From IMG/VR virus record IMGVR_UViG_2778261635_000005: DNA of 14,947 nucleotides; one strand, given 5' to 3'. The notes beneath the pieces are model-generated. The model saw only the letters and a program-made list of their open reading frames with translations, was not told where the DNA came from and ran no database searches. The position numbers and the translations under genes were made by a program. Shown here in pieces: positions 3,309 through 12,360 of this stretch; the stretch's first letter is position 1; each line of letters starts with the position of its first letter. This DNA is from a virus. Its lineage: Duplodnaviria > Heunggongvirae > Uroviricota > Caudoviricetes.

Positions 3309-3884
3309 CTACGGCAGTGCTGGCCATTCAATATCCTGTGCAGTTGACGTATCAACACGGTTCAGCAATACCCGATACTTTTTCCATGCTTCCAGCAACG
3401 AGATTTCTTCCTCCGTTGCAATTTCCAGATCTGCAGCATCCTGAAGCGGCGCAATATGCTCACTGGCTACCTGCATCAGGCTGTTTTTTGTTTCTTCCGC
3501 CTCCCGGATCCGGAACAGTTTTTCTGCTTCCGTATCCTTCACCCAGGCTGTGCCGTTCCACTTCTGATATTCCCCTCCCGGCGATAACCAGGTAACATTT
3601 TCCGGTAACGGACCGAGTTCAGAAATAAATAACGCGTCGCCGGAAGCCACGTCATAAACCGTTTTACCCCGATGATCTTCAACGAGATGCCACGATGCCT
3701 CATCACTGTTGAAAACAGCCACGAAGCCTGCCGGAATATCTGGCGGTGCAATATCGATACTGTTTGCTGGCAGACCTGTATGAGGCGGAATATATGCGTC
3801 ACCTTCACCAATAAATTCATTAGTTCCGGCCAGCAGATTATAAATTTTTATGGTCCGTGGTTGTTCACTCATTCTGAATGCCAT
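3309..3884 (-). CDS. tfaQ: Tail fibre assembly protein (lambda Tfa-like chaperone)
   Basis: 191-aa [37 protein letters not shown]... recognised as the lambdoid Tfa family; its start overlaps the stop of the upstream tail-fibre ORF (TAATG), as in stf-tfa pairs. Confidence 0.9.
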
Positions 3885-8889: not shown

Positions 8890-9096
8890 CTTCATTTTCA
8901 CTTTTTTAAATCCAACGACAGACGGCTGGCATTTAAGTATTGTGAAATATTATCAAATGTAATCATCATTGATTTACAAAAGATACATTTTGCCCCGAAA
9001 GGATTCATGTCAGAAACATCAAAAGATGATGTTCTATACTGGGAACCATGACAACACGGGCATCTAAAGTGAATATGGTTTGTAATATTGTCTACC

Positions 9097-9309
9097 TCAA
9101 AGCGCCACTACATGAACAGCGGCAGGACCTTTAGGTCCGTTCTCAATACCAAATTCAACTTCCTGATTCTCAGTTAATGTTTTGAAATCGTTGCTCTGAA
9201 TTGCTGAGAAATGGACAAACACATCTTTGCTGCCATCTTTCGGCGTGATGAAACCAAAACCTTTTTCAGGGTTAAACCATTTCACTAAACCAGTCATTTT
9301 GTTAGACAT
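9097..9309 (-). CDS. cspI: Cold shock protein, CspA family
   Basis: 70-aa [41 protein letters not shown]... with RNP1 (KGFGFI) and RNP2 (VFVHF) motifs; AAGG RBS 7 nt upstream. Confidence 0.95.
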
Positions 9310-9418
9310 AATTATTACCTTTTGAAGAAATTAGCCCTTGGGCAGAATGGTCCGAAAAAAAATATCAGAGAGAAAAACCAACAAGGAAATCTCAAGAGGT
9401 ACAAATAATAAAATTATA
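9310..9418 (-). promoter_or_regulatory. cspI promoter and 5' UTR (candidate -10 TATAAT at 9418-9413)
   Basis: Perfect TATAAT about 100 nt upstream of the cspI ATG on the minus strand; CspA-family genes typically have long 5' UTRs. No clear -35. Confidence 0.35.
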
Positions 9419-9672
9419 ACAATGACTGCTTCAGATAAATTTGTAACAAACCAGAACACCATTAACGCATGATTAACCACCCATAGCAAGGATTACTTTT
9501 GTAAAGAAAAACACAGCAATGAAAGAATAGCTTTATTTATTAATAATAACGTGTCATTCTGATTAAGACCTTTTATCTTACCCTTAAGATTTCAGGAATT
9601 TTGGCTCATGGAAGAGTCCTTTTTATTTAAATTTTACATTCCGCGATGTAAATGTTCCGATTTAATATTACC

Positions 9673-10696
<1,024 letters not shown>

Positions 10697-10700
<4 letters not shown>

Positions 10701-11008
10701 ATATATTTATGATGAGGACGCTCGTGTTTATTGGCAGGATTTTCAATCTTAAAGGAGTACTGATGCTGCAGATAAGACTCAACTTTTTCTGACAATTTTT
10801 CTGCTACTTCCAGGAAGACTTGCCGGACGCTCCTTCTGGCTGCTGCCTCATAAAACTCCAGCGCAGCTCCTTCAACACGGTCCATGGCGACATCCAGGTC
10901 AAAAATTTCACCGTCAAAGCGTTCTTTGTCCTGTAAGGCTACAGTTACCGTAACTTTATTCTCAAAATTACGGACTCCTTTCACAACCAGTTCATAGTCT
11001 TGAGTCAT
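10697..11008 (-). CDS. ydfR: DUF1327-family protein inserted between holin and lysozyme
   Basis: 103-aa ORF with GGAGAG RBS inside the end of the holin gene; its stop overlaps the lysozyme start (ATGA). Confidence 0.8.
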
Positions 11009-11012
11009 TGGA

Positions 11013-11228
11013 TTACTCTCCTCTCGCAGCCTTACGCCTGTCTTCTTTAATCTTGAAATAAAGATTTGTCAGATACGTCAGCAGGCCAAAAACCAGGCTA
11101 CCCAGCACACCGATTGCAGCCCACTGTGACGGAGTTACTTTATCGAGTAACTGCAATGCCCAGAAACCAGCATTACCCGCCGATGTGCCATAGGCAACAC
11201 CTGTTGTTAACTTATCCATTGATTTCAT
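11013..11228 (-). CDS. essQ: Class II holin, phage 21 S-type pinholin with dual start (MKSM...)
   Basis: Track ORF 11013..11303; the in-frame ATG at 11228 gives 71-aa [71 protein letters not shown], near-identical in layout to recalled S21 (two TMDs, dual Met starts). Confidence 0.85.
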
Positions 11229-11447
11229 ATCCTCACCCCGATGTACACGGATGGTGCAATATGTTTGAAAAGATCGGAGTCTACGGGGTAGTTTTGACAG
11301 CACACGCTGTTCTCAACGGCGCTAAAGAAACATACACATTAAAAATGTGAGTAATTATTTTGAAAGAAAGTCATATATAAAATAATAATACGAGAAATGT
11401 TTTCATATTTAGTGTACTGTATACGGCCATTTATACAGGAAAAGCCT

Positions 11448-11618
11448 ATGTCAGAACGTAAAGACTCAAAATCACGCCGTAATTATCTCGTTAAATGTTC
11501 CTGCCCAAACTGCACCCAAGAGTCAGAACACAGTTTTTCAAGAGTACAAAAAGGTGCCCTTTTGATCTGCCCTCATTGCAACAAAGTATTCCAGACAAAT
11601 CTTAAAGCTGTAGCCTGA
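11448..11618 (+). CDS. Small zinc-ribbon protein (56 aa)
   Basis: In-frame ATG within track ORF 11397..11618 with AGGAAAAG RBS 7 nt upstream; product MSERKDSKSRRNYLVKCSCPNCTQESEHSFSRVQKGALLICPHCNKVFQTNLKAVA carries CxxC...CxxC. Oriented against the late operon. Confidence 0.5.
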   Translation: MSERKDSKSRRNYLVKCSCPNCTQESEHSFSRVQKGALLICPHCNKVFQTNLKAVA

Positions 11619-11670: not shown

Positions 11671-11699
11671 AGATAATAAAAAACCCGCCTGAGCGGGTT
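11671..11699 (-). terminator. Strong intrinsic terminator ending the cspB transcript region
   Basis: Minus strand AAACCCGC-UCAG-GCGGGUUU stem followed by UUUUAUUAU; about 280 nt downstream of the cspB stop. Confidence 0.6.
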
Positions 11700-11981
11700 T
11701 GAGATTGTGGTGCTTTTTGTGGGAGTCATCCACTTACGCACTTTGTTTTGCCATGCCAGCAGTTAGCTTCTGCTGTAAAACTATTCATGCAGCAAACCTG
11801 CACTTCACCACAATGGTTAGCATACTTTTCCTGATTAAGATTTTGCCAAATATGCTGGCCATTGTTTCATGTATTGGACCTCCTTAATTTTTATTAAAGA
11901 AATCCAATATTCACTACTCTGTCCGTATCTCTACTCAGGCATCAGCCTTCTTCGTTATCGTATACAGACGAGCGATGAATT

Positions 11982-12197
11982 TTAATCAGTAATGATGACA
12001 TTTGCTGCTGCAGGACCTTTAGCACCACTCTCTATAGAGAAGGTAACCTTTTGACCTTCAAATAAGGTTCGATAATTATCATTCTGAATCGCAGAAAAAT
12101 GCACAAACACATCTTTACTACCATCAACAGGAGAAATAAAGCCGAAACCTTTATCAGCGTTAAACCATTTTACTAAACCAGTCATTTTATTTGACAT
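11982..12197 (-). CDS. cspB: Cold shock protein, CspA family
   Basis: 71-aa [41 protein letters not shown]... with RNP motifs; AAGGA RBS 7 nt upstream. Confidence 0.95.
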
Positions 12198-12360
12198 TCT
12201 ACATTCCTTAACTTGAGCCTTTCGGCATAAATGGTTTGCATAACAGAAACGACTTCGTACTTAATTGGAGAGACTCAAAGAAGGAATAAGTGAATAACAC
12301 CTGAAATGAGAACTGCTTTAGTAAACTACTTCGTATATCGTCTGTTCTTCAAACCGACGC
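12198..12360 (-). promoter_or_regulatory. cspB promoter and long 5' UTR (candidate -10 TTAATG near 12359-12354)
   Basis: About 150-nt leader between a cspA-like -10 (TTAATG, preceded by TTGCTT at about 18 bp) and the ATG; consistent with the long 5' UTRs of cold-inducible csp genes. Confidence 0.35.

Follow-up and report, generated by a model that had tools for sequence, protein, structure and literature searches.

The lysis-inhibition system of T4 includes RIII, a small antiholin cofactor of the cytoplasm that acts on the holin T, and the phage-encoded modulators of RNase E or the degradosome include T7 gp0.7 and T4 Srd. An RNA-related host partner of RIII, ribosomal protein S1, is described in one report (PMC9409239), and the phiKZ protein Dip has been described as occupying RNA-binding segments of RNase E (PMC4980113).

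For YdfR of the Escherichia coli K-12 Qin prophage (UniProt P76160), a study published in 2026 reported recovery in a two-hybrid screen (PMC13232886). A T25–YdfR fusion gave a two-hybrid signal with Rne 1-597, for which residues 1-72 were enough, and the signal with RNase G was weaker than that with RNase E 1-597; the full-length YdfR fusion gave a signal with one Rne construct only, in an overexpression setting (PMC13232886). Rne 1-598–FLAG co-eluted with Strep–YdfR from lysate, the Strep–YdfR eluate contained DNase-resistant nucleic acid, and the authors allowed for a contaminant (PMC13232886). Because the co-purification was carried out from lysate without nuclease treatment, the interaction between YdfR and RNase E may be RNA-bridged. 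Overproduction of YdfR altered few transcripts, growth arrest on overproduction was reported for YegJ only and not for YdfR, and ydfR was almost without reads, and so essentially silent, in K-12 under standard growth (PMC13232886). The gene also stands in the supplementary hit lists of a screen for envelope defects (PMC3879167), a phenotype that we suspect to come from polarity of the kan cassette on the downstream rrrQ. Our literature search returned no paper naming both ydfR and holin, and found DUF1327 named in a single comparative-genomics paper.

The window analysed here is a stretch of 14,947 nucleotides from a virus of the Caudoviricetes (IMG/VR record IMGVR_UViG_2778261635_000005). A sequence-only reading of it had described a 103-aa ORF between the holin and lysozyme genes, and the coordinates of this ORF were confirmed exactly, on the minus strand (Table 1). 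The ORF matched Pfam PF07041 (DUF1327) with an E value of 1.1e-53 and a score of 179.9 bits (cut-off 25) over the full length of the model, residues 1-93 corresponding to model positions 1-93 of 93, and the same model was matched by all 23 members of a diverse family alignment. Its product is 100% identical to annotated YdfR (WP_000189915.1), a 2.1-kb region around it is 100% identical to E. coli chromosomes annotated rzpQ-rrrQ-ydfR-essD-ynfU, and the wider neighbourhood is that of Qin, with ydfK, pinQ, gnsB, ynfN, cspI and cspB. This identity and these neighbours establish the ORF as ydfR, which belongs to the cryptic prophage Qin of E. coli and is a real protein-coding gene that was already known, named and annotated.

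As a genome feature, ydfR is ordinary: it is annotated in thousands of E. coli genomes, ydfR-like DNA is present in about two-thirds of complete E. coli genomes (3572 of 5426), and it occurs in sequenced phages. The sequenced phage Tritos also has this cassette, its YdfR protein being 100% identical, and more diverged copies are carried by mEp460, H-19B, PhiR12_2 and many Stx1a and Stx2c phages. The order holin–ydfR–lysozyme is readable in every annotation; in H-19B the ORF between S and R has been left without an annotation of its own. When one genome from each of 185,579 species was scanned with a sequence pattern, DUF1327 turned up in Escherichia and Shigella alone, if MAGs with evident contamination are set aside.

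Searches for a function by similarity gave little. DUF1327 was the sole Pfam match of YdfR, even at E values up to 10; no holin, muralytic or spanin family was matched in Pfam or PHROGs, the endolysin and spanin functions being supplied by the genes neighbouring ydfR, and the five PHROGs families that did match are all of ‘unknown function’. None of the PADLOC defence HMMs matched at E values up to 0.1, a YdfR profile run against all PDB sequences gave nothing below E 0.49, and fold searches with the YdfR model returned no known RNase E regulator (RraA, RraB, RapZ or Dip), so that the searches run gave no structural or sequence relative of known function. The long C-terminal extensions of other DUF1327 variants had no significant Pfam match. 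A kinship of DUF1327 with ROF was considered on weak matches of three members (E 0.1 or worse), which were dismissed as noise.

Table 1. Features of the lysis cassette around ydfR and of the region upstream of it (positions in the window).
Feature	Position	Strand	Remarks
Terminator-like hairpin AAACCCGC-TCAG-GCGGGTTT + T run	11681..11700	minus	Sequence scan
Class II (S21-type) holin gene	11013..11228	minus	71 codons + stop; Pfam PF04971, E 4.4e-34
Holin 3′ end AGA GGA GAG, last three codons	11016..11024	minus	Includes ydfR Shine–Dalgarno
ydfR (DUF1327 / YdfR family)	10697..11008	minus	103 codons + TGA, ATG start
Conserved DUF1327 core, codons 1-75 of ydfR	10784..11008	minus	Alignments, AF2, dN/dS
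Variable C-terminal tail, ydfR codons 76-103	10700..10783	minus	Alignments, AF2 pLDDT
ATGA, overlap of ydfR stop TGA and rrrQ start ATG	10697..10700	minus	Read from sequence
rrrQ, 177-aa lysozyme	10167..10700	minus	Pfam PF00959, E 1e-23; annotation
rzpQ, Rz-like (i-spanin-type) DUF2514 gene	9673..10170	minus	PF10721, E 7.7e-39; annotation
Candidate Rz1-type lipoprotein ORF, other frame within rzpQ	9723..9977	minus	Lipobox-like stretch by eye

The holin gene upstream of ydfR is essD/essQ by annotation in identical genomes. Its product begins MKSMDK, with Met codons at positions 1 and 4, and the SD sequence GGGGTGAGGAT lies upstream of its ATG; in the ORF list the reading frame stays open further upstream, to a GTG at 11303. 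The hydrophobic N-terminus of RrrQ resembles a signal-anchor-release (SAR) segment in its sequence, and RrrQ is 89% identical to R of phage Min27. The start of rzpQ overlaps the rrrQ stop. The ORF embedded in rzpQ was listed as 9723-9995; its start was set by eye at the seventh codon (Met), the lipobox was likewise recognized by eye, and no Pfam family was matched, so that it is given here as a candidate Rz1-type lipoprotein gene. The terminator-like hairpin follows cspB and precedes the holin gene. It is the sole such signal between cspB and the lysis genes, and it may have a role like that of tR′. Consensus scans of the minus strand between 10167 and 11300 found no promoter-like or terminator-like site within the cassette, and Rfam gave no RNA family match there.

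The holin stop TAA (11015-11013) is followed by TCCA and then by the ydfR ATG (11008-11006), and because the gap consists of these four nucleotides only, the Shine–Dalgarno (SD) sequence of ydfR, GAGGAG at 11023-11018, falls inside holin codons 69-71. The sequence-only reading was thus right in placing the ribosome-binding site of ydfR in the last codons of the holin gene, and the calculated anti-SD pairing energy at the ydfR start was −9.5 kcal/mol. It was equally right about the stop codon, the 3′ end of ydfR, AAA TAT ATA TGA, overlapping the rrrQ start, ATG AAC ACA, in the ATGA at 10700-10697. With its start only 4 nt past the stop of the holin gene, ydfR would be transcribed and translated together with the late lysis genes, and co-expression with them, which the reading had also claimed, is well supported by the operon packing, the strong SD, the lack of an internal promoter-like or terminator-like site in the scans, the coupling at ATGA and the constant adjacency described below.

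No SD precedes the rrrQ ATG, at which the pairing energy was +1.2 kcal/mol, and an in-frame TAA, three codons before this ATG, rules out a longer rrrQ ORF from an upstream start. The same pattern was found throughout the 138 cassettes carrying DUF1327, in which the mean anti-SD energy was −8.9 kcal/mol at the DUF1327 starts and +1.1 kcal/mol at the R starts, the endolysin start being without an SD in 138 of 138. In contrast, R starts in cassettes without DUF1327 gave −8.5 kcal/mol (Min27) and −7.1 kcal/mol (R21-type), and here the same holin-terminal SD serves the endolysin. A new point of this analysis is therefore that the ribosome-binding site used for the endolysin in other cassettes has been captured by ydfR, which has left the downstream endolysin gene without an SD. 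In the Qin allele, the endolysin would have to be reached by termination-reinitiation at ATGA, and in alleles of the H-19B type by SD-independent initiation in an A/U-rich leader. Loss of the SD probably lowers or re-times endolysin synthesis. As the endolysin gene is deprived of its SD when ydfR is inserted, a cis effect of the insertion on lysis is plausible. Such a takeover should alter the amount of the SAR-type endolysin relative to the holin.

The synteny survey proposed in the sequence-only reading was run. At the DUF1327-anchored loci of Escherichia and Shigella, the S21-type holin lay directly upstream and a 177-aa lysozyme downstream in all 89 of 89, so the position of the gene is fixed; the junction of holin stop plus 4 nt was found in 87 of the 89 by alignment, the alignments of the remaining two starting at residue 2. 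This upstream half of the described arrangement is general, whereas the overlap of stop and start codons at the lysozyme end is peculiar to the Qin-type allele, the corresponding gaps being approximately 50 nt in H-19B and mEp460 and at least 320 nt in other variants.

The gene itself is optional for S21-type cassettes. Of 80 IMG/VR loci whose holins share at least 92% identity with the holin of the window, 49 carried DUF1327 and 31 lacked it. All 49 DUF1327-bearing loci had the start 8 nt past the last holin codon and the 177-aa lysozyme type as the next gene. Among the 31 without DUF1327, four had no recognizable lysozyme and 27 led to an R21/RrrD-type lysozyme starting at a TAATG overlap, with holins 94-99% identical; these 27 bear out the statement in the earlier reading that in phage-21-type cassettes the endolysin follows the holin directly. 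In the functional Stx2a phage Min27, holin and endolysin are 80% and 89% identical, respectively, to the proteins of the window, and their genes lie 4 nt apart with no gene between them. In the phage collection, DUF1327 was found in 100 records, compared with 438 for this (S21-type) holin. When counted by record name, from two separate searches without record-by-record matching, DUF1327-positive and holin-positive records numbered 41 and 47 for Stx1a, 15 and 17 for Stx2c, and 2 and 124 for Stx2a. In phages of the Stx1a and Stx2c types, in which toxin release depends on the lysis cassette, ydfR is located directly downstream of stx; from Stx2a phages it is nearly absent.

Holins that are 97-99% identical, differing by approximately one residue, were also found without DUF1327 in IMG/VR. 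The sequence-only reading had named, as evidence against itself, absence of the gene from most otherwise identical cassettes with no change in lysis behaviour, and this observation comes close to it as far as gene distribution alone is concerned. Moreover, identical holins in IMG/VR are paired with different DUF1327 subtypes, of 103 and 183 aa, and there is consequently no sign of co-adaptation between holin and DUF1327.

A profile search of 1.8 billion representative proteins gave only 86 DUF1327 matches. These include stand-alone homologues that are 72-94 aa long, Sodalis ligni and a Serratia species being two of their sources. Distant homologues, down to 22-40% identity, keep the hydrophobic pattern and the Y53-E54 pair. 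For six of them the context was informative: each gene is on the late strand and forms part of a lambda-like tail operon, where it occupies the T|H (tail chaperone/tape-measure), M|L, L|K or I|J junction, and none of the six lies in a lysis cassette, from which we conclude that the DUF1327 domain is not intrinsically a lysis function. A seventh lies on a short contig and its context could not be placed.

A convergent ORF of 70-186 aa follows DUF1327 immediately in six of the seven distant contexts, the Sodalis context being the one with none. At least three unrelated families are represented among these ORFs, which had no known domain, nothing significant being found in Pfam. Escherichia cassettes with the 169-183-aa variants also have a convergent ORF, of 86 aa, which overlaps the DUF1327 3′ end (15 loci, 90-100% identity) and for which we found no convincing promoter; the Qin allele has lost this part of the layout.

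The AF2 model of YdfR has three antiparallel core strands (residues 5-14, 18-27 and 34-43) and a helix from residue 50 to approximately 87, followed by residues 88-103 predicted to be disordered (pLDDT below 50). The mean pLDDT was 80.7, with the core above 90, when distant homologues were added to give a diverse alignment; a model from a shallow alignment of close homologues (pLDDT 46) was discarded. In the core, the invariant residues are Y53 and E54 and the nearly invariant ones Y5 and V21, E6, D43, R44 and E46 are kept as charge class, and G47 is found in 20 of 23 members; the acidic residues E6, D43, E46, E51 and E54 are conserved or invariant across the family. YdfR has a pI of 5.6 and its core a pI of 4.7 with a net charge of −5.5 at pH 7; by residue count the net core charge is −5 in this YdfR and ranges from −7 to +1 across the family. 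Neither a transmembrane segment nor a signal peptide nor any hydrophobic segment was predicted in YdfR (GRAVY −0.61). On this modelling, YdfR is a small soluble acidic cytoplasmic domain of approximately 72 residues with a dispensable mosaic tail.

The tails of DUF1327 proteins are unrelated or mosaic, and total lengths of 103, 104, 114/116, 169-183, 206 and 287 aa occur. The Qin tail agrees with the start of the 174/206-aa variants and then stops at an A/T-rich stretch just upstream of R, as seen when the Qin junction CCTCATCATAAATATATATGA is set beside CCTGATAAATATCCATGA of H-19B and mEp460. Because the tail breaks off at this stretch, the ATGA overlap of Qin looks like the product of a deletion, and the Qin tail, in the sequence comparison, looks like a truncation of the 174/206-aa variants. 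We therefore rejected the overlap as a general design feature, as it is specific to the truncated Qin-type allele.

Across 36 distinct alleles the core has a dN/dS of approximately 0.33, indicating purifying selection, and comparison of the Qin with the Stx subtype shows saturation at synonymous sites (pS ∼0.8) and a pN of ∼0.35. Constraint among the Qin-type alleles themselves is weak (dN/dS 0.6), and approximately 9% of the sampled ydfR alleles are truncated or frameshifted, one type being a ydfR-rrrQ fusion.

The explanation that we favour, tentatively and without regarding it as probable, is that YdfR is a late-expressed cytoplasmic host-directed accessory protein rather than a component of the lysis machinery, with RNase E or RNA as its best candidate target, and that insertion of its gene rewired the translation of the endolysin as a side effect. 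The gene is a common, optional passenger of S21-type lysis cassettes in Escherichia lambdoid phages. As candidate target we see the N-terminal catalytic half of RNase E (and of RNase G), or else RNA attached to it, so that binding of YdfR might tune RNA turnover at a late stage of infection; lysis, if affected at all, would most likely be affected indirectly, in cis, via the changed translation start of the endolysin. That the interaction with RNase E is the biological function of YdfR we infer from the two-hybrid and co-elution results. Against the accessory-factor explanation, the RNase E data are thin and open to RNA bridging, overproduction altered few transcripts, the searches run gave no relative of known function, the strict adjacency to the S21-type holin (89 of 89) might mean a functional tie rather than shared ancestry of one insertion, the Qin-type alleles are weakly constrained with their share of broken copies, and an acidic protein such as YdfR is an unusual kind of direct RNA binder. 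The adjacency is also an argument for the role in lysis timing or lysis inhibition that the sequence-only reading had suggested, which would have YdfR bind the basic C-terminal tail of the pinholin or the SAR-type endolysin and so delay or sharpen lysis, by analogy with T4 RIII. With the same holin type always upstream and the 177-aa lysozyme always downstream in Escherichia (also in 49 of 49 IMG/VR loci), with a strong SD and co-translation with the lysis genes, with an acidic core that could pair with the basic holin tail, and with RIII as precedent for a small cytoplasmic antiholin cofactor, such a regulator is conceivable, but we consider it unlikely. The gene is missing from most cassettes of the same holin type, including that of a functional phage with the same endolysin type, and from cassettes whose holin differs by about one residue; one and the same holin accompanies the 103-aa and the 183-aa subtype; the distant homologues sit in tail operons; the S21 holin has a dual-start antiholin motif of its own (MKSMDK); and overproduced YdfR caused no growth arrest (PMC13232886). 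The suggested role therefore found no support in an optional gene with tail-operon homologues, a product with neither transmembrane segment nor signal peptide, and published data that concern RNase E and RNA only.

It is distinctly unlikely, in our judgement, that the protein has no relevant function and that only the cis effect on the endolysin start matters, or nothing at all in a decaying cryptic prophage. The SD-less R starts in 138 of 138 cassettes, the weak purifying selection in Qin-type alleles (0.6) with their frameshifted, truncated and fused forms, and the near absence of ydfR reads in standard growth (PMC13232886) would all be expected of such a passenger; on the other hand, the core is conserved as protein over deep divergence (pS ∼0.8 against pN ∼0.35), stand-alone homologues of 72-76 aa persist in other genera and at other genomic positions, and intact copies are carried by Tritos, mEp460, H-19B and Stx1a/Stx2c phages. 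The convergent ORFs raise another explanation, in which DUF1327 is half of a two-gene mobile module and acts as a late-phase regulator of, or antidote to, the convergent gene, the Qin allele having been orphaned by deletion of its partner and of the C-terminal extension. This accords with the convergent ORF in six of seven distant contexts, with the 86-aa ORF at 15 Escherichia loci with the 169-183-aa variants, and with a Qin tail that starts as do the 174/206-aa variants and breaks off at the A/T-rich stretch. We nevertheless regard it as quite improbable: the convergent ORFs fall into at least three unrelated families, which leaves a specific partnership unproven, the Escherichia ORF has no convincing promoter, the Sodalis context has no such ORF, the orphan Qin-type allele is the commonest and mostly intact, and small convergent ORFs may merely mark an insertion hot spot. 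A very improbable extension of these ideas is that DUF1327 is a guardian of late operons of a class not recognized before, a minimal dsRBD-like protein docking on RNase E/G and travelling with small convergent genes inserted into lambdoid late operons, which would protect the long late transcript or control the partner mRNA at sense/antisense collisions. This guardian would unite the co-purification with RNase E and RNA, the weak dsRBD-like fold, the convergent ORF that recurs in tail and lysis modules alike and the SD-less, possibly regulated endolysin start.

The ORF in the window is thus a member of the YdfR/DUF1327 family in the strictest sense, with the same neighbours (essQ/essD, rrrQ and rzpQ), and we found no difference between them. 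If the interaction with RNase E is true, the accessory-factor explanation would make YdfR a temperate-phage case of the manipulation of host RNA decay in the late phase. [quoted passage not shown] Dip, however, binds the C-terminal scaffold, whereas the association reported for YdfR is with the catalytic half, and the searches run found no sequence or fold similarity between YdfR and such phage modulators of RNase E. The resemblance to a dsRBD (PF00035-type, α-β-β-β-α) is similarly partial, because YdfR lacks the first helix and is acidic overall; Pfam dsrm matched none of the 23 DUF1327 members.

Compared by description, YdfR and T4 RIII are both small soluble cytoplasmic phage proteins that are genetically tied to lysis, but RIII belongs to a lytic phage with a different holin (T), whereas YdfR is optional within one type of cassette and has homologues in tail operons. 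The membrane-borne lysis timers S21-68 and S21-71 have a transmembrane segment and YdfR has none. With the morons, such as lambda bor and lom and the Stx2 ant between R and Rz, ydfR shares both the presence/absence polymorphism and the insertion at a junction in the late operon. Min27 carries another passenger, ant, in the same type of cassette, with bor alongside. Classical morons, in contrast, come with a promoter and a terminator and are active in lysogens, whereas ydfR, by consensus scans, has neither of these and is translationally embedded in the late operon.

Every cassette carrying a DUF1327 gene, represented by the one in the window (endolysin start region, 10697-10720) and by 138 related loci, lacked a Shine-Dalgarno (SD) sequence before the 177-aa endolysin gene, with a mean computed anti-SD pairing energy of +1.1 kcal/mol, whereas in cassettes without DUF1327 the endolysin is served by a strong SD within the last holin codons. 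Insertion of DUF1327 should therefore alter the holin:endolysin ratio.

The DUF1327 gene also lies just 3' of stx, inside the toxin-releasing cassette. Two separate searches of the phage collection, tallied by record name and not matched one to one, found DUF1327 in 41 Stx1a records, compared with 47 for the S21-type holin; the corresponding figures were 15 and 17 for Stx2c, and 2 and 124 for Stx2a. This skew across Stx types may be a mere effect of phage lineage.

In other Enterobacterales phages, a small convergent ORF (70-186 aa) directly follows the DUF1327 genes of tail operons, and one is likewise found in Escherichia lysis cassettes with long-tailed DUF1327 variants. At least three unrelated families are represented among these adjoining ORFs, none of which was matched in Pfam or PADLOC, and DUF1327 and its convergent partner may constitute a two-gene mobile module.

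Features flanking the lysis cassette, and compared loci with a convergent ORF beside DUF1327
Feature	Coordinates	Strand	Match
cspA-type thermoregulator leaders (cspB and cspI), window	11966-12358 and 9070-9455	(-)	Rfam RF01766
Terminator-like hairpin between cspB and holin, window	11700-11681	(-)	
ynfU, zinc-ribbon protein, window	11397-11618	(+)	PF23499
DUF1327 + convergent ORF, own coordinates	L175 3001-3821; L179 449-1001; L182 511-966; L185 3501-4019		
DUF1327 + convergent ORF, own coordinates	L187 3501-4006; L188 503-1328; L003 2501-3218; L047 3221-3986		

The IMG/VR loci included seven frameshifted ydfR alleles of 129 aa, truncated alleles of 25, 44 and 85 aa, and one in-frame ydfR-rrrQ fusion of 279 aa; another locus (L015) has an insertion of approximately 1.4 kb, its lysozyme alignment being limited to residues 46-177. 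These disruptions are consistent with decay in cryptic prophages. YdfR cores 100% and 81% identical were encoded in Firmicutes MAGs assigned to Veillonella parvula (L006) and Bacillota (L011), almost certainly E. coli prophage DNA present as binning contamination. The Keio ydfR mutant is among the hits listed in the supplements of a CPRG screen for envelope leakiness (PMC3879167); because a kan cassette in place of ydfR would give read-through into the genes for the SAR-type lysozyme and spanins, this phenotype may be polar rather than caused by loss of YdfR.

The lysis cassette lies between two cspA-type leaders that share its strand, and the reported cold induction of essQ-ydfR-rrrQ could arise from transcription reading through from cspB. 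Between cspB and the holin gene lies ynfU, opposite in strand to the lysis genes; ynfU should be within the late-transcript leader, and phage Tritos has no annotation for it. Elsewhere, distant from ydfR, the window contains an IS009 match (RF02111, 221 bits; 3343-3541, minus strand).

The holin begins MKSMDK (11211-11228, minus strand), in which codons 1 and 4 both specify Met. Phage 21 S has a dual start producing the antiholin S71 and the holin S68; the two-Met start seen here is the same arrangement, so the cassette, judged by this motif, would already encode an antiholin of its own.
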